DNA of 64,000 nt, taken from IMG/VR virus record IMGVR_UViG_3300037225_000856, positions 1 through 64,000 of that record. One strand, given 5' to 3'. This document shows, piece after piece, positions 3,312 through 47,885 of this stretch. Numbering within the stretch: the stretch's first letter is position 1; each line of letters opens with the position of its first letter. The notes under the pieces are model-generated. The model did no database searches and was not told where the DNA came from. It saw only the letters and a program-made list of their open reading frames with translations. Source of the stretch: a virus. Made by a program: the position numbers and the translations under genes.

Positions 3312-4220
3312 ATGAACATTTCTGTTAGAAAAATATGGAATGAAGACGAAACTAATTTTTTATTAGCAAATTATTCTAATGAAGGATTAAAATTTTGTTT
3401 TAAAAAATTAAATATATCAAAATATGTTATTTTTAGAAAAGCAAAATCATTAGGTCTTAAAGTTTCTGAGCAAAAATTACGAGAATTACAATCTAAGTCA
3501 CAACAAGAAAATAATTTTAAAAAATATTCTCCAGAAGAATATATAAATCCAAGAACTCCAGAAACTGCATATTTTTTAGGTTATTTTTGGGCAGATGGCA
3601 ACATAATAAAAAGAAATACACATAAATCATCAATATCTTTAGTTGAAAAAGATGCTGAGTATTTATTTAATAATATTGTAAAAAAAATAAATGGTAATGT
3701 TTGGACAATAAGTAACTCAATTCCTGTTTATTCCATTGATAAATTTGGTAATAAAAAGCAAGTTAGAAATCAAAAACTGATTAAATCATATTCGATTGAG
3801 TTATTTAATTTTTTTAAAATTATGAATTACGATATTAAATCGAAAACTAATTTCAATAAAATATTTAATATTATTCCGCAGCATTTAAAGTCATTATTTA
3901 TTTTGGGTTTGTTTGATGGTGATGGCTGTATAAATACAACCTATAAAACATATAAAAACATTAGCGGAAGAGTAGAATTTAGTTCAACATATAATTATGA
4001 TTGGTCAACATTTGCAAATTATTTAAGTGAAAATAAAATAGAATATATAATAAAAAATAGAGTAAATAAAAATGGAAAATGCTCATTATTTAGAATTAAT
4101 AAACAAACATCAATTATAAATTTATATGAATTGATTTATAAAAATAGTGAGATTGGATTACTACGTAAAAGAGAGAAATTTAAAAAATATTATAATTATT
4201 TAATAAATAAAGGCATATGA
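3312..4220 (+). mobile_element. Free-standing double-motif LAGLIDADG homing endonuclease
   Basis: AYFLGYFWADG and FILGLFDGDG motifs, N-terminal HTH-like segment, C-terminal LxRKxxKF. Confidence 0.85.
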
Positions 4221-18319: not shown

Positions 18320-19495
18320 ATGATATTTAAAGAGGAAATAAATAAAAATGACTATATTATAGTTAAATATTTTTTAGAATCAAAGACATCGTTAAGAACT
18401 GCAGCTTGGAGTTTAGCTATTGGTCAAAGTGTTGGTAATCCAAATGTTAGAAATAAGTGGGAAACAGATGAATTGTTTGAAAAATATTCAGCATTGGTAA
18501 TTGCTGATGAAGCCGAATTAAAATTACTTAAAAGAGGTATTGTAAATATAGCTTTTCCAAAAGTAAATATCGATTGGAATACAGATGGTATTTCACAATT
18601 ACTATGTTTTATAATGGGTGGTCAATTAGACATTGATGATATAATTAAATGTCATGTTTTGGATATTGAATTTCCTGACTCAATTGTTAATAATTTTAAG
18701 AAACCTAAGTTTGGTTTAACTGGATTTAGAGAATATACAAACACATATAATAAACCATTTTTTGGTGGTATTGTTAAGCCAAAGACTGGTATATCAAGTG
18801 GAGTATTATTGGATATGGTAAAGGAAATGGTTGATGGTGGTGTAAATTTTATAAAAGAAGATGAAATATTGGGAAATCCAGAATTCTGTAAAATAACTGA
18901 TAGAGTACCGAAAATAATGAATTATTTAATAGGAAAAAATGTGATATATTCCGTATGTATTAATTCAGACCCAATGTATGTGTTGAACAGGGTTAAAACC
19001 GTTTATTGTCTTGGTGGCAATTCAGTTCATATTAATTTTTGGTCTGGAATGGGTGTTTATAAATCTGTTAGAGATTTAGATTTACCAATTTTTATTCATT
19101 TTCAGAAAAGTGGTGATAAAATTTTAACAAGTAAAACACACGATTTTCATATTGATTGGTACGTGATATGTAAATTAGCATCATACATGGGCGTTGATTC
19201 AATTCATGCTGGCATGATTGGTGGTTATATGGACAATGATGAAGTTGAATTATTAAAAGCATTAAAGGTGTTGACCGAGAATAATGTTACCCCTGCACTT
19301 AGTTGTGGAATGCATCCGGGTTTGATTGAGTACATTAATAATAAAATTGGGGTAGATTATATGGCAAATGTTGGTGGTGCGTTACACGGGCATCCTAATG
19401 GTACATATGCTGGTTGTTTGGCAATGAGACAAGCAATTGATAAAACATATCGGAAAGAATATTATCTGGCAATTAAAACATGGGGAAAAAAATAA
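18320..19495 (+). CDS. RuBisCO-like protein (form IV)
   Basis: PKFG..G.R, KPKTG, GGVNFIKEDE, IHAG, SCGMH, GGALHGHP.G..AG..A.RQA. Several carboxylase residues are substituted. Confidence 0.92.
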   Translation: MIFKEEINKNDYIIVKYFLESKTSLRTAAWSLAIGQSVGNPNVRNKWETDELFEKYSALVIADEAELKLLKRGIVNIAFPKVNIDWNTDGISQLLCFIMGGQLDIDDIIKCHVLDIEFPDSIVNNFKKPKFGLTGFREYTNTYNKPFFGGIVKPKTGISSGVLLDMVKEMVDGGVNFIKEDEILGNPEFCKITDRVPKIMNYLIGKNVIYSVCINSDPMYVLNRVKTVYCLGGNSVHINFWSGMGVYKSVRDLDLPIFIHFQKSGDKILTSKTHDFHIDWYVICKLASYMGVDSIHAGMIGGYMDNDEVELLKALKVLTENNVTPALSCGMHPGLIEYINNKIGVDYMANVGGALHGHPNGTYAGCLAMRQAIDKTYRKEYYLAIKTWGKK

Positions 19496-20221: not shown

Positions 20222-20673
20222 TGAAATTTATTGCACATAGAGGTAACATTAATGGTGTTGAAATTGAAAAAGAAAATACGTTAGAATATATTGTTTCAGC
20301 AATAGAAGGGGGTTTTGATGTGGAAATTGATATGTGGTATAAAGATAATTCATTTTATTTGGGACACGATAATTTTGAGTATAAAATTTCATTAGCTTTT
20401 TTACAGCAATTTTCAGTGTTTCTTTGGTGTCATGCTAAAGATATTTATACTTTAAATGAATTATTAAAATATTTTGAAATTAATTGTTTTTTTCATCAAA
20501 ATGATAATTGTACATTAACATCACATAAATATATTTGGACGTATCCTGAAAAATCGTTGACAGAACGTTCAATATTACTTAAATTTGCAAAAGACGAGAA
20601 CTTTACAATACCGAAGAATATTTTTGGTATATGTAGCGATAACGTTGAATACTATAAAAACAAATTAATATGA
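20221..20673 (+). CDS. Minimal glycerophosphodiester phosphodiesterase-like protein
   Basis: IAHRG, ENT, VEID, LGHD, GICSD motifs. Confidence 0.75.
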   Translation: MKFIAHRGNINGVEIEKENTLEYIVSAIEGGFDVEIDMWYKDNSFYLGHDNFEYKISLAFLQQFSVFLWCHAKDIYTLNELLKYFEINCFFHQNDNCTLTSHKYIWTYPEKSLTERSILLKFAKDENFTIPKNIFGICSDNVEYYKNKLI

Positions 20674-21686
20674 ATTTACTTATTGCATATGGAACTCGTC
20701 CTGAGTTTGTCAAAACTAAACCAATAATTAATGAATTGAATAAAAATAATTTTTTATTTAAAACATTATTTACTGGTCAACATGTGGATTTATTAAAAGA
20801 ATGTCCCGCAAATTATGTAACCAGCATCATTAATTCGGGTATTCAAGAGAATAGATTAGACGAAATCGTTCAATCAATAATGGGCGTGTTTACGGGAGCA
20901 AAAATGTTTTATGATAATATAACTCATGTAATGGTTCAGGGAGATACCACATCAGCAATGGCAATTGCATTATCTGCATATCATCATGGTATAAAAGTTA
21001 TTCATCTGGAAGCAGGACTTAGAACATATGATAAAAAAAATCCATATCCTGAAGAAGTAAACAGGAGAATTATTTCAGAAATTGCTGATATTCATTTATG
21101 TCCGACAGAATTAGCAAAACAAAATTTATTGAATGAAAGAATTGATGATGATATTTATGTGGTTGGCAACACAGTGATCGATAATTTATTATCTTATAAA
21201 GATAAATGTGAATATACTAATAAGATTTTAGTTACTCTACATAGGCGTGAGAATCATCACTGGATGGACAAATGGTTCATTGAATTAGATAATTTGGCTA
21301 AATTATATCCAGAATATGAATTTATTCTACCAATTCATCCTAATCCAAATGTACAAAAATGGAAGCATTTATTAAAGAATGTTGTGATTATTGACCCACT
21401 TCCATATGAGAAAATGCTTGATTTACTGGTTCAATGCAGACTTGTAATTACTGATAGTGGTGGACTTCAAGAAGAATCTTGCTTTTTCAATAAAAAATGT
21501 TTAACTTGCCGAATTGTAACAGAACGTCCAGAAGCAATTGGATTAAGCACTTTTATGGTTGAAAGACCAAATATGTTAATTGGGGCATTTATACATCACA
21601 TTAATAATTATAAAATAAATGTAGAATGTCCATTTGGTGATGGACATGCTGCAGAAAAAATAATGAAGATATTAAAAAATTTATAA
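20670..21686 (+). CDS. wecB: UDP-N-acetylglucosamine 2-epimerase (non-hydrolysing)
   Basis: GTRPE, TGQH, QGDT, HLEAGLRT, PEEVNR, HRREN, TDSGGLQEE, TERPE, PFGDG motifs. Confidence 0.95.
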   Translation: MNLLIAYGTRPEFVKTKPIINELNKNNFLFKTLFTGQHVDLLKECPANYVTSIINSGIQENRLDEIVQSIMGVFTGAKMFYDNITHVMVQGDTTSAMAIALSAYHHGIKVIHLEAGLRTYDKKNPYPEEVNRRIISEIADIHLCPTELAKQNLLNERIDDDIYVVGNTVIDNLLSYKDKCEYTNKILVTLHRRENHHWMDKWFIELDNLAKLYPEYEFILPIHPNPNVQKWKHLLKNVVIIDPLPYEKMLDLLVQCRLVITDSGGLQEESCFFNKKCLTCRIVTERPEAIGLSTFMVERPNMLIGAFIHHINNYKINVECPFGDGHAAEKIMKILKNL

Positions 21687-22468
21687 TGAAAAAAGTATTA
21701 GTAATTGGTGACGGTTGCAAAGATGTGTTTCAATATGGAAAGTGTGAAAGGTTAAGTCCTGAAGCACCAGTACCTATATTTAAACCAACAAAAGCAAATA
21801 ATAATGGTGGCATGGCAGTGAATGTTTATAATAATCTTAAAGCATTAGGTGTTGAATGCGATATTTTAACCGAAAGCGGTATTACAAAAACCCGTTATGT
21901 TGATGAAATCAGTAATCAAATGCTACTCCGAGTTGATGAAAATGATATGATTTTTACGAGTCCAAGAATGTATGATAAAATCATGAATTTTGATTATAGT
22001 GCATATGATGCAGTAGTTATATCTGATTATGATAAAGGTTTATTAAGTGAAAAAATGATTAAACGTATTGCAATTAGCAATCCATTGACGTTCATGGATA
22101 CCAAGAAGAATATTAGCAATTGGGCAACATTTATAAAATTCATTAAAATAAATAAAAAAGAGTTTGATCAAAATGAAGGTTATTTAACACTTCATTTTCC
22201 AAATGACGTTATTGTGACATTAGGTGAAGCTGGTGCGATGCGTTATTATAATGATAATGGCGCATGTAGAACTGAGATGTATCCAAATGTTAATGAACAT
22301 CCTGTACGTGATCTTACAGGTGCAGGTGATACTTTTTTTGCAGGACTTGTTGCGAAATTCATAGAAAATAACGATATTTGTGATGCAATTATATTTGCAA
22401 ACAAATGTGCTGCTTGGGCAGTAACGCAAAAAGGTGTGGCAGTGGTTGATAGATATAAAATTAAATAA
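21686..22468 (+). CDS. Heptose-7-phosphate kinase (HldA/RfaE kinase domain, PfkB family)
   Basis: RLSPEAPVP, KTRY, LLRVD, SDYDKG, DLTGAGDTF motifs. Confidence 0.88.
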   Translation: MKKVLVIGDGCKDVFQYGKCERLSPEAPVPIFKPTKANNNGGMAVNVYNNLKALGVECDILTESGITKTRYVDEISNQMLLRVDENDMIFTSPRMYDKIMNFDYSAYDAVVISDYDKGLLSEKMIKRIAISNPLTFMDTKKNISNWATFIKFIKINKKEFDQNEGYLTLHFPNDVIVTLGEAGAMRYYNDNGACRTEMYPNVNEHPVRDLTGAGDTFFAGLVAKFIENNDICDAIIFANKCAAWAVTQKGVAVVDRYKIK

Positions 22469-22469
22469 T

Positions 22470-22847
22470 ATGATAGAAATTACACATGTAACAAATAAAA
22501 AAATACACGTACCGAAAGCATGGGGCGAAGAAGTTATTATTCACAATGGAGAAGATTATTGTGGAAAATTATTGCGTTTTAGAAAAGGTGGTATGTTCAG
22601 CCTACATTTTCATTCTTTAAAGACGGAATCATTTTATGTTAATAAAGGTATTTTTAACTTAACCACAATTGATACAAGAACTGCTGCAAGACAGCATATT
22701 AGTCTTGTAGAAGGAGATATTATTCATATTGAACGCAATACTCCACATCAACTGGAAGCACTTGAAGAAAGTGAAATATTTGAAGTAAGCACACCACATA
22801 ATGATAATGATAGTTATAGAATAGAGAAAGGAGATAGTCAATGTTAA
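22470..22847 (+). CDS. Cupin sugar-phosphate isomerase-like protein
   Basis: PKAWG.E, SLHFH..K.E, PHQL, EVSTP...DSYR resemble the type II mannose-6-phosphate isomerase cupin domain. Confidence 0.75.
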   Translation: MIEITHVTNKKIHVPKAWGEEVIIHNGEDYCGKLLRFRKGGMFSLHFHSLKTESFYVNKGIFNLTTIDTRTAARQHISLVEGDIIHIERNTPHQLEALEESEIFEVSTPHNDNDSYRIEKGDSQC

Positions 22848-23131
22848 TTTACGTAGATATTGATAACACAATTTGTACAACTATTGATAGTGATTATAAG
22901 AATTCCAAACCGATTCAAGAAAATATTGATAAAATAAATCGACTTTATAATGAAGGCAATACGATTGTTTATTGGACTGCTCGTGGCAGAGTTACACGTA
23001 AAAATTGGTCAATTTTAACTCGTAAACAACTGAGAGATTGGGGATGTTTGCATCATAAACTAGATATGAGTAGCAAACCTGCATATGATAGAATTATCGA
23101 TGATAAAGCGTTTAAAATTAATGAATTATGA
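22841..23131 (+). CDS. Small HAD-family phosphatase
   Basis: VDIDNTIC, WTARG, KP, IDDKA (HAD motifs I-IV). Confidence 0.8.
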   Translation: MLIYVDIDNTICTTIDSDYKNSKPIQENIDKINRLYNEGNTIVYWTARGRVTRKNWSILTRKQLRDWGCLHHKLDMSSKPAYDRIIDDKAFKINEL

Positions 23132-23562
23132 ATATTTGGACTAATGGTTGTTTTGACATCTTACATACAGGGCATATTGAGTTATTGAATTATGCAAAGA
23201 TGTTTAATCCAGATTTTGAAATATTTTATACACCACTTATTGTTCACAACACTTTATTTGTTGGACTTGATAGTGATGAAAGAGTTAAAAATTTAAAAGG
23301 AGATAAACGACCAATAAATGACATTGACACACGTTTAACAATAATGCGTAATTTGAGAATGGTTGATGAAGTATTTATATTTAATACAGATGATGAACTG
23401 CGACAATTAGTTAAAGAATTGAGTATTGATTATATGATTGTTGGTAATCAATATCAAGATAAAGAAGTAATTGGACATGAGAATTCGAAATATGGTGTAA
23501 TCTATTATAAAGTAGACGAGAGGTCAACAACAAATATTATTGAAAAAATTAAAAATTCATGA
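23128..23562 (+). CDS. Heptose-1-phosphate nucleotidyltransferase (HldC/RfaE2-like)
   Basis: TNGCFDILHTGH, GLDSD, LKGDKRPIN, STTNII motifs. Confidence 0.88.
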   Translation: MNIWTNGCFDILHTGHIELLNYAKMFNPDFEIFYTPLIVHNTLFVGLDSDERVKNLKGDKRPINDIDTRLTIMRNLRMVDEVFIFNTDDELRQLVKELSIDYMIVGNQYQDKEVIGHENSKYGVIYYKVDERSTTNIIEKIKNS

Positions 23563-24467
23563 TAGTAGTAACAGGTGGTGAAGGATTTATTGGCAAAAAT
23601 CTTGTTAAAGAGTTGGAAAGACAGGGCAATATTGGTGTTGTAAGTCTTGATACAAAAACCGAAAATCTTGGTTTTATTTATTCTTGGCTTTTAACCTATG
23701 CTGATCAAATTGATTGTATATTTCACCTTGGAGCAATTACCGATACTACTGAAATGAATAAGAGTTTATTCGATGAATATAATGTTGAATCTTCAATTTT
23801 TATCTGGAATTTATGTTCAGATTGGGGTATACCATTGATTTATGCAAGTTCTGCAGCAACATATGGTGATGGTAAAGAAGGATTTGATGATGAGAAGGAT
23901 ATTATTAATCTTAAACCATTAAATCCATATGGCTGGTCAAAACAACAATTTGATATATGGGCAGAAATTCAAGAGCAACAACCACCAAACTGGTATGGTC
24001 TGAAGTTTTTCAATGTATACGGGTATGGAGAAGCACAGAAAGGTAAAATGGCATCAGTTGCTTTTCACATGTTCAATCAGATTGACGAATCAAAAAAAGT
24101 TAAATTATTCAAATCACATCGTCCAGATTATGAAAACGGTGAACAAAAAAGAGATTTCATTTATATTGATGATATAGTTGATGTTTGTTTATTTTTATAC
24201 GATAAAAAACCACTTTCAGGTATTTATAATGTAGGTACTGGAAAAGCACGTACATTTAATGATCTTGGCAGCGCAGTTTTTAAAAGTCTTGATATTCCGC
24301 TTTTAATTGATTATATTGACACTCCGATTTTAATCAGAGATAAATATCAATATTTTACTGAAGCTAAGATTAATAAGTTGAGGATGACTGGTTATAAAAA
24401 ACCTTTTAGTGAGTTAGAAGATGGTATTTCGAAATATATAAATAAATTAAATGATAAAACTTGCTAA
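23559..24467 (+). CDS. hldD: ADP-L-glycero-D-manno-heptose 6-epimerase
   Basis: FHLGAITDTTE, YASSAATYG, PLNPYGWSK, FFNVYG, KGKMASV, RDFIYIDD, YQYFTEA motifs. Confidence 0.92.
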   Translation: MIVVTGGEGFIGKNLVKELERQGNIGVVSLDTKTENLGFIYSWLLTYADQIDCIFHLGAITDTTEMNKSLFDEYNVESSIFIWNLCSDWGIPLIYASSAATYGDGKEGFDDEKDIINLKPLNPYGWSKQQFDIWAEIQEQQPPNWYGLKFFNVYGYGEAQKGKMASVAFHMFNQIDESKKVKLFKSHRPDYENGEQKRDFIYIDDIVDVCLFLYDKKPLSGIYNVGTGKARTFNDLGSAVFKSLDIPLLIDYIDTPILIRDKYQYFTEAKINKLRMTGYKKPFSELEDGISKYINKLNDKTC

Positions 24468-25089
24468 CATTATTTATGAAAAAGAATTGATAAATCACAC
24501 AAAAGTTGATTATGTTAATTATTTCAATTCATCTACCGAATATAATAAAGTAGATAAAACACTACCTACATTATATGTGGGATGGTCGTTCATGAAATCC
24601 TGCAATCCCTTTAATGAGATTATTCAAAATGCTAATATTCTTCATAAAAAGATAATTGCAAATGAGTTATATTGGGAATGTAGTTTTGAAGAAAGTGAAC
24701 CATCACATGTAAAAGGCATTAAAAAATTTGTTAGCTTAGTACCACAATTTTATTTTCAACCAAAATATAATTTTATAAACTTAGACCCATTATTTTTTCA
24801 AATAACTGATATTGAAGGATTAATGGATGTTCTCCCAAAAGAAATTGATTTTTTATATAATTTTAAAAATGAAATGATTTATTTATTGGCGGGTAATAAG
24901 ATCACTGGCATCGATTTGCTGATGTATAAAAATTTTAAATTTAATACCTTAGAAATTCTTGCAAGAATACAAGAAAGAACAAAAAAATATCAGAATGATT
25001 TAGATGGTAGCATATATCTATCATATTATAAAATACTTCCAGATTTTTCTCACCTTAAAAGATATCTAATAGTTATATTGTCAATTTGA
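24451..25089 (+). CDS. Hypothetical protein
   Basis: 212-aa ORF coupled to hldD, with an LPTLYVGW motif. Confidence 0.6.
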   Translation: MIKLANIIYEKELINHTKVDYVNYFNSSTEYNKVDKTLPTLYVGWSFMKSCNPFNEIIQNANILHKKIIANELYWECSFEESEPSHVKGIKKFVSLVPQFYFQPKYNFINLDPLFFQITDIEGLMDVLPKEIDFLYNFKNEMIYLLAGNKITGIDLLMYKNFKFNTLEILARIQERTKKYQNDLDGSIYLSYYKILPDFSHLKRYLIVILSI

Positions 25090-27108: not shown

Positions 27109-28584
27109 ATGAAAGTATTTAAACCAACAGGTAGTAAAGAAAGATTTGCTGAAATATTTCAGGGAGTCAATAAAGTTAAATTAAATGAAGGTTTCGGACA
27201 GAGTTATAATCCACAAGCTGTTCTTGAAATGGCATTTGAAGGACTAAAAAATGGTACTCTTAATATTGTGCATAGTAATTCACAAGGAGAGGGCGAACAA
27301 AGTTTTATTGAACTGGTTTGTAAAGACAAACAAGGCAATAACATAACATTTACATTTAAAACATTATCAAGTGCTGACGATCAGGAAGGTGTTTATAATA
27401 TTGATAAAACCATAATGACAAATTTTTCATTTGATGACCAAACTGGTGAAGATAGTGTTGAAATGGATGAAAATGCATTAAAACAATTTAATGCACAACA
27501 TGCCAATGATTTATTTGATGCTGTTAAAGAATATATTGATGTTGAAGAAGAAGAACCAGCAATAGATGAGTTATATGAAGATGCAATTAGGAAAATTGAT
27601 TCGAGTCCATTTGGTAAAGACAGTTTTGATAAATTGCAAACAGGTAAAGCATATGCTGATGAAAAACCAGTTAATCCTGCAATAAGAGTAAAATCTCCTG
27701 AATTAGATAAATTTGTTAGTGAAGATGCAAACAGTCTGTTACATTTTTCACAGGCAGCACGTGATGCAGGTAGTAGTTTTAAAACAAAATTAGCTGTGTC
27801 ATATCAACATGTACTTGCTAATACACTTAAAGATATTGGTATTACAATTCAAAACATTGAAGACATTGATAACCAGAAATATAAAATTACTGCAGAATAC
27901 CAAGGACAACCACGTACATTTACAATTAATGGAGGTAAATTTAATAATGCTGCAAAAGTAAGAGAATTGCTGAAAAAAGCATTGAAAATTGGTGTTGAGG
28001 AAAGTTTATATGAAGAAGAAGCAAAAATAGCTGGTGATTATCCAGACCCAATGGGTAAGAAATTCAAACCAAAAGAACATTATCCAAAGAAAAAGAGAAA
28101 ACCGCAAACTACTGTTAAATTAAGTGAACAGGATGAAGAAAATAATTATGAAGAAACATCTGATTCAAATATTCCAATAGATAAAAGAGCAAAAAAAACA
28201 GCACAGTCCGATATGCACAAAGAATTTAATCGTACAATACCATATGATACAAAATTTAATGCTGGCATGGATGAAAAAGCTGAAGAACCATTAACTGGCG
28301 ATGATAATGTTACAGACACTGAATTTATGAATAAAGAGCGTCAGGGATTACAAGGTGGTGAAGATGATGTTAATCCAGATACTACCAACGATGTTAACCC
28401 AGAAACAGAAATGGGTACTGAAAATGATGTTGAAGCAGGTGATGGTATGACTCCTGAACCAGATTTTGATAAAATGGGAATGGGAATTGGTAGTGATTGG
28501 GATAAAAAGACAAGAGGAACTGATAATGAGCTAGAAAATGATGATGTTATTAATAATTTTAATATGAATTTTTTCTTGAAATGA
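27109..28584 (+). CDS. Large acidic putative head protein
   Basis: The start MKVFKPTGSKERFAEIFQGVNKVKLNE parallels the previous gene; acidic low-complexity C-terminus. Confidence 0.5.
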   Translation: MKVFKPTGSKERFAEIFQGVNKVKLNEGFGQSYNPQAVLEMAFEGLKNGTLNIVHSNSQGEGEQSFIELVCKDKQGNNITFTFKTLSSADDQEGVYNIDKTIMTNFSFDDQTGEDSVEMDENALKQFNAQHANDLFDAVKEYIDVEEEEPAIDELYEDAIRKIDSSPFGKDSFDKLQTGKAYADEKPVNPAIRVKSPELDKFVSEDANSLLHFSQAARDAGSSFKTKLAVSYQHVLANTLKDIGITIQNIEDIDNQKYKITAEYQGQPRTFTINGGKFNNAAKVRELLKKALKIGVEESLYEEEAKIAGDYPDPMGKKFKPKEHYPKKKRKPQTTVKLSEQDEENNYEETSDSNIPIDKRAKKTAQSDMHKEFNRTIPYDTKFNAGMDEKAEEPLTGDDNVTDTEFMNKERQGLQGGEDDVNPDTTNDVNPETEMGTENDVEAGDGMTPEPDFDKMGMGIGSDWDKKTRGTDNELENDDVINNFNMNFFLK

Positions 28585-29447
28585 AAACAAATTTATGTAA
28601 ATGCGGTTGTGGTAATCTATGTGAACAAAACTACCTAAAGGGACATGGTCGGAAGGGTAAAAAAAATAGTATTGAGCATAATATTAAAATATCTAAGGGA
28701 AATATTGGTAAAAAATGTAGCTATGAAACTAAAGAAAAATTAAAGGAAATTAATTTAGGTAGAAAGCATACAGAAGAAACTAAGCAAAAGATTTCAAAAA
28801 TAGCCAAAGAAAAAGAATTTGGAAAATGGATGATAGGAAAAGAAGTGTCTGAAGAAACGAGAAATAAAATAAGCGAGAGCAATATTGGACGTGTAACATC
28901 AGAAGAAACGAGAAATAAAATATCGTTAGCAAATTCTGGAGAAAATAACGGAATGTATGGTAAAACCCATTCTGATGAATATAAAGAAACGTTGAGAAAT
29001 AATGCCGTAAATCTTAGAAAAAATGCACATACACCAGAAGCAATTGAAAAAATGAGAATTAAAATGATTGGGAGAAAAACATCTTCAGAAATTAAAAGAA
29101 AAATGAGAATCTCAAAAATTGAATTTATTAAAAATAAAAATGGTGGGATTTGTCCAATGCATAATATTAATGCTTGTAAATATTTAGATGATTTATCTAA
29201 AATTAATGAGTGGAATTTACAACATGCATTAAATGGTGGTGAATTTTATGTTTCAGAATTGGGATATTTTGTTGATGGATATGATATTAATAAAAATATT
29301 GTTGTTGAATATGACGAACCGCTTCATTATAATAGAAACGGTGAATTAAAAAATAAAGATATTATTAGACAAAACGAAATAATTAATCATCTAAGATGTA
29401 AATTTTTTAGATATAATGAAAAGAAAGGAATTTTATATGAAATTTAA
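28581..29447 (+). mobile_element. NUMOD3-repeat homing endonuclease with C-terminal PD-(D/E)XK/Vsr-like domain
   Basis: CKCGC, repeated (H/T)SEETR.KIS, N.MYGKTHS, VDGYD....VEYDE..H motifs. Confidence 0.8.
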
Positions 29448-41635: not shown

Positions 41636-42727
41636 ATGAAGGGATTAACAACATATGAATTTATAATGAAAGCAGGATTTGTGCATGGTGATAGGTATGA
41701 TTATTCTAAAGTTGATTATATTAATAATAGGACAATGGTAGATATTATATGCAAAGAACATGGATTATTTCAACAAAATGCTTCAAACCATCTTGCTGGT
41801 CAGAATTGTCCTATTTGTATGGGTAGGGGAAAAGGTAATAGTGAGAGATTTATTAATGCTGCAAAACAAAAACATGAAGATAAATATGATTATTCTTTAG
41901 TTAAATATAAAGGTAGTAAATCTAAAATAAATATTATTTGTAAAGAACATGGTGTTTTCGAGCAAAGACCCACAAGACATTTATGCGGTGATGGTTGTCC
42001 TAAATGCAATGGTGGTGTTAAATCAAATCATAATGAATTTATTCAGAAGGCAAATGTTATACATGATAATAAATATGATTATTCATTAGTTGATTATATT
42101 AATTCAATAACAAAGGTTAAAATAATTTGTAAAAAACATGGTATTTTTGAAATGAAACCAAATTCTCATTTATGTGGACAAGGTTGCTATATGTGTGGTA
42201 TTGAAAAAAATACTCATACCACAGCACAATTTATTGAAAAAGCACAAAAAATTCACGGTAATATATATGATTATAACTTAGTTGATTATATTCATAATAA
42301 CATAAAAATAAAAATAATTTGTCGTGAACATGGAATTTTTGAACAAAAACCCTATTCGCATTTAAATGGTAGAGGTTGTTCTAAATGTAAAACCAAATCA
42401 AAAGGTGAATTATTTATTGCCAATTGGCTAAGTCAAAATGTTATTAGTTTCGAAGTTCAAAAATCATTTATTGATTGTAAAAATGTGCTGCCTTTAAGAT
42501 ATGATTTTTATTTACCTAAATATAATATGCTTATTGAATATGACGGTGAACCCCATTTTAGAGAAGTTGCTTATTTGGGCGGTAAAAGAGGTTTTGAATT
42601 AAGACAAACCAATGATAAATTAAAAACAGATTATGCAATAAACAATAACATTAATTTATTGCGTATTCCTTATACTGAAAGAAAATGTCTTTCAAAAATA
42701 TTAAAAAATAATATTGTAACTACTTAA
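41636..42727 (+). mobile_element. Homing endonuclease with four zinc-binding repeats (DUF723/CapR-like) and a Vsr/DUF559-like nuclease domain
   Basis: Four copies of YDY..V.Y...IIC..HG.F......HL.G..C..C, then SKGE, YDFYLP, IEYDG..H, LLRIPY. Confidence 0.82.
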
Positions 42728-46946: not shown

Positions 46947-47885
46947 ATGATAGTAAACAGTAAAAAAACAGATAATGATAGGTATGTAATCGCTGAAATT
47001 TTTGGCGGACATGGAAAAACCATCGTTTCAACTGCAGTAATTCGTGCAATTAAGAAGCAGTATCCTGATTATAAAATAATTGTAATTGCCAGTTGGGATG
47101 GAAGTTTTTTTTATAATCCTGATGTTTTTAGGTTCTTTTTACAAAATCAAATACCACAATACTTCAAAGAGGATTATCTTAAAGAAGATACTATTATAAT
47201 GAAACATGATCCTTATAATGAAACAAATCATATTCTTAGAAAAGAACATCTGACTGAGACTTGGTGTAAAATGTTTAATGTACCTTATGATGGTTATAAA
47301 CCTAAAATCTATTTAAACCCACGTGAACTTGAAATAGCGAGAGATAAAATAAAACCAGATAATCGTCCTATTATGCTTCTCCAGACACACGGAGGAAGCA
47401 ATCAACAATATTCGAAAAAATCTTGGTATAGGGATATGCCTATAGAGACAGCGCAAAAATTAGTAAATTATTTTAATAAGTCCTACCGTATACTTCATAT
47501 TAAGTCACCAGAGCAACCAATTTTACAAGGTGTTGAACCTCTTACTTTACCATATAGAGAATTATATGCCGTATTTCCACTTTCAACAAAAAGACTGTTC
47601 ATAGATTCTTTTGCTCAACATGTTGCAGCAGCATTGGATTTACCAAGCACTGTTGTTTGGATTGGTAATTCACCCAAAGTATTTGGTTATCCTGAAAATA
47701 TAAATATATTGCCGAATGCGAATATTATAAACAATCTTGATAAATTTACATACTTAGTTGATGATATTTCTGGCATGGTGCAAGCCTTCCCGTATGATAC
47801 TGTTAATTTGTTCGATATAAATAAAATTATTGAAGCAGTAAACAAACAACCAGTTCCAGATGTTTCAAAGATGAATTTCATGTAA
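46947..47885 (+). CDS. GT9-like (ADP-heptose-dependent heptosyltransferase family) glycosyltransferase
   Basis: N-terminal GGHGK.I..TAVIRAIKKQYPDYKI, HLTE, P.IYL, K.W, and C-terminal IDSFAQHVAAALDLPSTVVW matching the GT9 DS..xH.AAA...P signature. Confidence 0.75.
   Translation: MIVNSKKTDNDRYVIAEIFGGHGKTIVSTAVIRAIKKQYPDYKIIVIASWDGSFFYNPDVFRFFLQNQIPQYFKEDYLKEDTIIMKHDPYNETNHILRKEHLTETWCKMFNVPYDGYKPKIYLNPRELEIARDKIKPDNRPIMLLQTHGGSNQQYSKKSWYRDMPIETAQKLVNYFNKSYRILHIKSPEQPILQGVEPLTLPYRELYAVFPLSTKRLFIDSFAQHVAAALDLPSTVVWIGNSPKVFGYPENINILPNANIINNLDKFTYLVDDISGMVQAFPYDTVNLFDINKIIEAVNKQPVPDVSKMNFM

Follow-up and report, generated by a model that had tools for sequence, protein, structure and literature searches.

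A predicted cupin-type sedoheptulose-7-phosphate isomerase and a miniature HAD phosphatase in a probable phage gene cluster for ADP-heptose synthesis

We analysed a 64-kb stretch of viral DNA (the window), which is the first part of the 112,403-bp IMG/VR virus record IMGVR_UViG_3300037225_000856, and found in it five consecutive plus-strand genes, at positions 21686-24467, that probably encode a self-contained phage route from host sedoheptulose 7-phosphate to ADP-L-glycero-beta-D-manno-heptose. The isomerase of this route would be a small cupin and its phosphatase a miniature HAD protein. The cupin as isomerase is the best-supported step, strongly supported by gene context and by phyletic complementarity with the canonical isomerase GmhA; the HAD step is less firmly supported. 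ADP-heptose biosynthesis is a textbook five-step pathway whose product builds the lipopolysaccharide core and acts as an innate-immune agonist, and to our knowledge GmhA is the only enzyme fold known for its first step. The record has a GC content of about 29% and is estimated by CheckV to be 37% complete.

The first gene of the set (21686..22468) encodes a short, 260-aa HldA-like kinase of the PfkB family (PF00294, 1e-18). Its N-terminal motif is conserved, and the best of its 20 PfkB-family matches in NCBIfam is TIGR02198 rfaE_dom_I (3.9e-37, 128 bits). The second gene (22470..22847) encodes a 125-aa metal-binding cupin (Cupin_2, 3.2e-8), the predicted sedoheptulose-7-phosphate isomerase and non-SIS analogue of GmhA; a GTG at 22434, if used in place of the ATG, would give a protein of 137 aa. 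The third (22841..23131) encodes a 96-aa capless HAD phosphatase, recognised by its HAD motifs and predicted to be a heptose-1,7-bisphosphate 7-phosphatase analogous to GmhB. The fourth (23128..23562) encodes a 144-aa HldC-like nucleotidyltransferase of the cytidylyltransferase fold (PF01467, 1.3e-12), a predicted heptose-1-phosphate adenylyltransferase for which TIGR02199 rfaE_dom_II is the best NCBIfam match, covering the full length (1.7e-28, 99 bits). The last (23559..24467) encodes the 302-aa ADP-glycero-manno-heptose 6-epimerase HldD, whose match to TIGR02197 (7.5e-101, 337.4 bits) is above the NCBIfam equivalog cut-off of 274.6 bits. The genes are translationally coupled, with a 1-nt gap between kinase and cupin followed by overlaps of 7, 4 and 4 nt. 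A first-pass annotation, made by a model from the letters of the window, had described five overlapping or abutting genes here, and all of the open reading frames (ORFs) and their families, the latter matched by Pfam and NCBIfam, are as it described them.

The same five chemical steps as in the bacterial pathway (GmhA; HldE or HldA plus HldC; GmhB; HldD) are predicted for the phage set. In step 1 the cupin, holding a divalent metal on H46, H48, E53 and H93, would convert sedoheptulose 7-phosphate to D-glycero-D-manno-heptose 7-phosphate via an enediol, as its phosphomannose isomerase (PMI) relatives do with fructose 6-phosphate and mannose 6-phosphate. The kinase would then phosphorylate C1, the 96-aa HAD would take off the 7-phosphate, the HldC-like enzyme would adenylylate the product, and HldD would epimerise C6. 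Three of the phage proteins are homologous to bacterial ones: the kinase, shorter by about 55 residues, to HldA, the nucleotidyltransferase to HldC and the epimerase to HldD. The two systems differ at the remaining steps: bacterial step 1 is carried out by the SIS-fold GmhA and bacterial step 3 by GmhB, a HAD-IIIA enzyme of about 180 aa, whereas in the virus-encoded pathway these steps are assigned to the cupin and to the 96-aa capless HAD. The ADP-heptose would presumably be used by glycosyltransferases encoded in the 25-kb glycan cluster around the set. Gene content, translational coupling, conservation, gene fusions, complementarity with GmhA, folds and catalytic motifs are what the analysis shows; the catalytic activities, the nucleotide used and the acceptor are those we infer.

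Relatives of the cupin are common in viruses. A tblastn search of GenBank phages with the cupin returned 35 T4-like cyanophage records at 42-48% identity, and more than 585 viral contigs in IMG/VR carry a relative. The cyanophages P-SSM2 (PSSM2_309-313) and S-CAM1 have all five genes side by side at 31-47% identity; the kinase of the window is 37% identical to PSSM2_310 and the nucleotidyltransferase 31% identical to PSSM2_309. This cyanomyovirus set (P-SSM2, S-CAM1, S-SM2, SynMITS9220M01) is homologous in all five genes and has the same cupin and mini-HAD solution, but it differs in gene order and strand and probably in host phylum. We analysed the gene content of 82 cupin-seeded viral loci and found the short kinase in 55, the nucleotidyltransferase in 53, the mini-HAD in 38-41 and HldD in about 30; kinase, cupin and HAD occur together in 38 of the 82. 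As the same five families are linked in so many other viral loci, the grouping in the window is far beyond chance. Gene order and orientation vary widely among the viral loci while the gene set is kept, a pattern better explained by functional linkage than by a gene order inherited from a common ancestor. Where a locus has a lone cupin or a lone kinase, the partner was found elsewhere in every near-complete record tested, including the complete 326-kb relative G044. The HAD and cupin are fused in a single protein of 222-244 aa at nine loci, and at eight of the nine an HldE-like fusion of kinase and nucleotidyltransferase (456-473 aa) lies no more than a few kb off, as the immediate neighbour at three, so that four predicted activities are carried by two proteins.

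In one group of T4-like phages (L026, L028, L041, L052, L060-L062, L075, L081) the cupin lies away from heptose genes and near the gp20 portal gene, where its flanking genes are an ORF of about 455 aa that resembles FAD oxidoreductases and one for a 176-aa AAA_28 protein; the kinase is elsewhere in the single complete genome tested from this group. A search of the 112-kb record gave no T4 portal.

The cyanophage gene set has been mentioned in a genome announcement as heptose-related lipopolysaccharide or auxiliary genes (PMC7378029). In the GenBank and RefSeq entries for PSSM2_311/312 of P-SSM2 and C030809_113/114 of S-CAM1, 'phosphoheptose isomerase' is given as the label of the mini-HAD, and the cupin goes under 'putative nucleotidyltransferase' or 'cysteine dioxygenase'. 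These labels look wrong and have been passed on to newer cyanophage records, so the enzyme swap is unrecognised in GenBank.

In viruses the cupin and GmhA were not found together. We looked for GmhA as TIGR00441 or SIS_2 (PF13580) and obtained no match in the 112-kb record, which is 37% complete, none in the complete P-SSM2 and S-CAM1 genomes, none in 41 cupin-bearing or in 41 kinase-bearing viral records, and none in 161 viral loci amounting to 1.96 Mb. Likewise no TIGR00213 (GmhB) match was found elsewhere in the same partial record, so the searches bore out what the first-pass annotation expected of the rest of the genome as far as the record extends. In the converse scan, viral contigs were searched with a GmhA alignment built from genomes found in this analysis. 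GmhA was present in 89 viral contigs, versus more than 585 with the cupin in the collections searched. A heptose kinase lies within 8 kb at 20 of the best 80 viral GmhA loci, and none of the 80 has the cupin. With no cupin in the viral GmhA loci and no GmhA in the cupin records, viral heptose clusters fall into two types that do not overlap, one with GmhA and one, much the commoner, with the cupin.

The same complementarity is seen in cells. Strict cupin peptide patterns matched 35 of about 185,000 species genomes. In a sample of 151 Planctomycetota genomes that are at least 85% complete, the HldA/HldE kinase domain is present in 137 and GmhA in 123, and 18 have the kinase without GmhA. Eight gave strong matches to the cupin profile, at 77-134 bits and 40-45% identity to the protein of the window. 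All eight are among the 18 kinase-only genomes, compared with 0 of the 119 that have both kinase and GmhA (Fisher p = 1.8e-8, with phylogeny ignored). Kinase and cupin without GmhA also occur in further Planctomycetota, in a Bryobacteraceae genome, in two metagenome-assembled genomes (MAGs) of candidate phyla radiation (CPR)/Saccharibacteria type, in a Nanoarchaeota MAG and in a Methanosarcinales-labelled genome. The order in the Saccharibacteria locus (L168) is cupin-kinase-GmhB-nucleotidyltransferase-HldD, and here the cupin fills exactly the one otherwise empty slot, that of the isomerase. Gene context and complementarity with GmhA thus support the first-pass reading of the PMI-type cupin as an analogue of the sedoheptulose-7-phosphate isomerase, as a predicted activity.

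Two further groups of cells were noted. Campylobacterales (Poseidonibacter and others, L181-L185) have a distinct cupin clade in the arrangement GT1-cupin-HldC-like nucleotidyltransferase, and these genomes gave no GmhA at E <= 1e-5 and no strong HldA kinase at E <= 1e-20, a threshold that is perhaps too strict. The control genome of Synechococcus elongatus has an HldA kinase domain (E <= 1e-40) and GT9 and no TIGR00441 GmhA at E <= 1e-3, and may be a further case in which the first step is non-canonical.

Cupins act as tailoring enzymes in the Campylobacter GDP-heptose and dTDP-sugar pathways, and the cupin of the window could likewise act downstream, for example as a C3/C5 epimerase or ketoisomerase on a nucleotide-heptose or heptose phosphate, with heptose 7-phosphate supplied by the GmhA of the host. 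The presence of GmhA in the control genome Bacteroides thetaiotaomicron is in line with such a supply, the structural neighbours of the cupin include CapF-, FdtA- and RmlC-type cupins, and there are cupin-FkbM methyltransferase fusions. We nevertheless regard a tailoring role as unlikely, as it leaves unexplained why the cellular genomes with kinase, GmhB, nucleotidyltransferase and HldD that lack GmhA are those that hold the cupin, and why the GmhA-type and cupin-type viral clusters never overlap. In addition, the nearest sequence relatives of the cupin are sugar-phosphate isomerases (split PMI, Lyx_isomer, PF01050) and not nucleotide-sugar epimerases. The methyltransferase fusions themselves are of two kinds, cupin-FkbM proteins of 356 aa (L066:5956-7026, L072:619-1689) and a HAD-methyltransferase protein of 306 aa (L049:6336-7256); found in some phages, they hint at O-methylated heptose products.

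By fold the cupin is not a GmhA, being a beta-barrel instead of the flavodoxin-like SIS fold. The protein carries the textbook motif G-x5-HxH-x4-E-x6-G and the histidine of the second cupin motif, and H46, H48, E53 and H93 are invariant in the family alignment. The AlphaFold2 (AF2) model is an all-beta barrel (pLDDT 91). Its profile matches are weak (MannoseP_isomer 3.5e-4, Lyx_isomer 1.2e-4, and GMP_PMI), and searching PDB sequences with the cupin profile gave weak generic cupins only. Structure searches (Foldseek on PDB and VIA-align wide) likewise returned generic cupins only, with Z of 11-15.

Genomes with both GmhA and a relative of the cupin do exist, namely Bdellovibrio-like and 'Deltaproteobacteria' MAGs and three planctomycetes, with cupins 31-41% identical to that of the window. 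We considered these as counter-examples and rejected them, as their cupins belong to a separate clade that is linked to mannose-1-phosphate guanylyltransferase (GMP) and carries the PMI glutamine ligand. In a maximum-likelihood tree nearly all cupins of GmhA-bearing genomes, together with four Peregrinibacteria relatives, form this clade (SH-aLRT 99). At 11 loci the sister-clade cupin directly adjoins a ManC-type GMP gene that has no PMI domain of its own, and because of this the clade is, on sequence and context, assigned as a split type II PMI. Column comparison shows that both clades have K16, W18, G19, E21, Y30, K33, S44, H48, K51, E53, H93, E105, S107, T108 and H110 in common. Position 46 is histidine in 112/112 sequences of the heptose-linked clade and glutamine, the PMI ligand, in 15/15 members of the sister clade; Cys31, Asn26 and a C-terminal D114-S115-x-R117 are peculiar to the heptose-linked clade. 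Given the active-site framework shared with the split PMI, the window cupin is placed by its sequence in a sister family of sugar-phosphate aldose-ketose isomerases. PMI interconverts a ketose phosphate and a manno-configured aldose phosphate, the counterpart of the heptose reaction with one carbon fewer.

The cupin domain of type II PMI (PF01050; the C-terminal domain of ManC/GMP-PMI and the small archaeal PMIs, PDB 7ZVY and 7ZVM) is similar in size to the window cupin and also binds a metal, and the predicted reaction of the cupin, from ketose phosphate to manno-configured aldose phosphate, is of an analogous type. An ordinary type II PMI that makes GDP-mannose and merely neighbours the heptose genes would account for the PF01050 and GMP_PMI matches, weak as they are, and many homologues are named 'mannose-6-phosphate isomerase-like' by JGI. 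The cupin falls below the PF01050 gathering score, however (21.2 versus 23.6 bits), and its first metal ligand is histidine where PMI has glutamine, a replacement found, as said, throughout its clade along with the clade-specific Cys31 and DSxR. Type II PMI is linked to a GMP gene, as the separate split-PMI clade is, whereas no GMP gene is linked to the heptose-linked cupin, whose neighbours in the window are the HldA-like, HAD, HldC-like and HldD genes. We consider it most improbable that the cupin is an ordinary PMI.

The mini-HAD retains all four HAD catalytic motifs: DxDxT at D6/D8/T10, T46, K79 and D87-D88. Across 19 aligned homologues D6, D8, T10, K79-P80 and D88 are invariant, and conservation of T46 is 90% or higher. 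The AF2 model is a minimal capless Rossmannoid (pLDDT 90.5) for which HAD structures are the top Foldseek matches; GmhB structures rank 12th-19th, at E of about 1e-2, and the 96 aa of the window protein compare with a GmhB core of about 180 aa. Two PDB entries match the family profile over the full length, 9IQW (E 1.3e-20) and 1XPJ (E 1.3e-9), and the window protein is 37% identical to 9IQW. Along with 1XPJ, the EcbF/BcbF capsule phosphatases of TIGR01689 may be further relatives; the window protein matches TIGR01689 at only 30 bits against a cut-off of 162. The 9IQW structure, the nearest relative of the mini-HAD among solved structures, is AfhF, the D-arabinose 1,5-diphosphate phosphatase of the E. 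coli phage HY126, a Mg-dependent enzyme that converts arabinofuranose 1,5-bisphosphate to the 1-phosphate in the UDP-arabinose route for arabinosylation of DNA 5-hydroxycytosine (PMC13326640). Like the window protein, AfhF is a phage-encoded miniature capless HAD, and in removing the terminal phosphate of a sugar 1,omega-bisphosphate it carries out the GmhB type of reaction. It differs in length (134 versus 96 aa) and in its partners, a SIS arabinose-5-phosphate isomerase and a fusion of APH kinase and NTP-transferase versus cupin, PfkB kinase, HldC-like nucleotidyltransferase and HldD. Because its PfkB, HldC-like and HldD partners differ from those of the arabinose route, we predict from sequence and neighbourhood that the window mini-HAD is a heptose-1,7-bisphosphate 7-phosphatase, less firmly than the cupin is predicted to be the isomerase.

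The AfhF relationship raises the alternative that the cassette makes some other activated sugar, for example through a pentose 1-phosphate or hexose 1-phosphate in the manner of the phage UDP-arabinose pathway, with cupin, kinase and HAD acting on a different ketose phosphate. That the only characterised relative of the mini-HAD acts on arabinose 1,5-bisphosphate, that the kinase and nucleotidyltransferase score under their equivalog cut-offs, and that many of the 82 cupin-seeded loci, about 20 of them, have no HldD would all fit. Yet HldD, which acts on heptose C6, is above its equivalog cut-off here, the two HldE domains are the best NCBIfam matches of the kinase and the nucleotidyltransferase, and the cellular cupin co-occurs with canonical HldE and GmhB. 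Moreover, the phage arabinose pathway relies on a SIS isomerase and on a fused APH-like kinase and NTP_transferase, and not on enzymes of the PfkB and HldC types (PMC13326640). A different sugar product is very unlikely in our estimate.

Several observations weigh against the heptose route as proposed, and we collect them here. The kinase and the nucleotidyltransferase fall well short of their equivalog cut-offs (128 versus 345 bits for TIGR02198 and 99 versus 181.5 bits for TIGR02199). The best structural matches of the cupin include epimerase and ketoisomerase types (CapF, FdtA, RmlC), and its fold alone is uninformative on function. The statement that this phage has no gmhA elsewhere rests on the complete 326-kb genome of G044 and on the family-wide pattern, the window's own record being 37% complete. 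No GT9 heptosyltransferase was found by Pfam in the 112-kb record; an ORF at 46947-47885 considered as a GT9-like consumer was rejected, having no Pfam glycosyltransferase match at E <= 0.05 and no PDB sequence match. Among Planctomycetota, to which the Fisher test is applied as if genomes were independent of phylogeny, ten genomes have the kinase and, at the thresholds used, neither GmhA nor the cupin (G125, G139, G171, G190, G194, G209, G227, G244, G248, G264), so an undetected third isomerase or incompleteness is possible. Two observations concern the HAD: 16 of 22 cellular cupin genomes have a canonical GmhB-like HAD, often adjoining the kinase, and in three complete phage genomes with cupin and kinase neither mini-HAD nor GmhB was found.

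Because the cellular cupin genomes have GmhB and not the mini-HAD (one weak match in 22), the cupin swap and the HAD swap are independent events. E. coli gmhB mutants are leaky, and the phosphatase step may therefore be easy to substitute. The first-pass proposal that the 96-aa HAD replaces GmhB accordingly stands in part: linkage, the HAD-cupin fusions and the likeness to AfhF speak for it, and the three complete phage genomes that have cupin and kinase but neither phosphatase speak against it.

The heptose genes lie at the 3' end of a single plus-strand block of glycan genes at 1.9-25 kb of the window. This block contains several GT2 glycosyltransferases, two FkbM methyltransferases, at least four SDR epimerase/dehydratases, an NTP-transferase, a RuBisCO-like protein and WecB. 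The wecB gene (20670..21686, plus strand) encodes a WecB-type UDP-GlcNAc 2-epimerase (TIGR00236, 258.6 bits, above the 210-bit cut-off). It is translationally coupled to the kinase gene downstream by a 1-nt overlap and also adjoins the kinase in the relatives L004 and L094, but it is a neighbour only and stands outside the heptose pathway. Directly 3' of HldD is a conserved 212-aa ORF, orf212 (24451..25089, plus strand), with no Pfam or NCBIfam match; an Atlas search with it returned viral hypothetical proteins only. It is syntenic in L003, L004 and L005 and lies next to the kinase in L094. The order in G044 is wecB-kinase-orf212, with cupin and nucleotidyltransferase about 58 kb away and the cupin within one 394-aa frame together with an HNH-like segment (L162:7270-8454).

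The RuBisCO large-chain-like protein of the sugar block (18320-19495; PF00016, 2.7e-31) lies between the NTP-transferase and an FkbM methyltransferase. Genes for homing endonucleases (LAGLIDADG, NUMOD3-type and HNH-type) are dispersed over the window, at 3312-4220, 28581-29447 and 41636-42727, one of them between glycosyltransferase genes.

In the literature searched we found no published description of a cupin-type GmhA or sedoheptulose-7-phosphate isomerase, or of phage ADP-heptose. Relative to published knowledge, the phage set would represent a known pathway with non-orthologous displacement, and the cyanophage genes are known as annotations only, partly wrong. The destination of the heptose may also be other than a lipopolysaccharide-like glycan. 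By analogy with the arabinosyl-5-hydroxycytosine system, the source of AfhF and thus of the only characterised relative of the mini-HAD, it could go to a target peculiar to the phage, for example virion proteins or even the bases of DNA. We think this quite unlikely; were it true, the cupin would be the entry to a heptosylation system specific to viruses, from which it would later have spread to Planctomycetota, CPR bacteria and DPANN archaea.

If the cupin is the first enzyme of an ADP-heptose route, as we consider probable, it would be a clear-cut instance of non-orthologous displacement, with a cupin-type sedoheptulose-7-phosphate isomerase taking the place of GmhA in certain genomes from several cellular lineages and, in the collections searched, being far commoner than GmhA in viruses. 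Long-standing misannotations in model cyanophages would be corrected, and pathway calls would change, since the absence of gmhA would no longer mean the absence of heptose. Phages carrying the set would draw heptose directly from an intermediate of the host pentose-phosphate pathway and Calvin cycle, without the need for host lipopolysaccharide genes.

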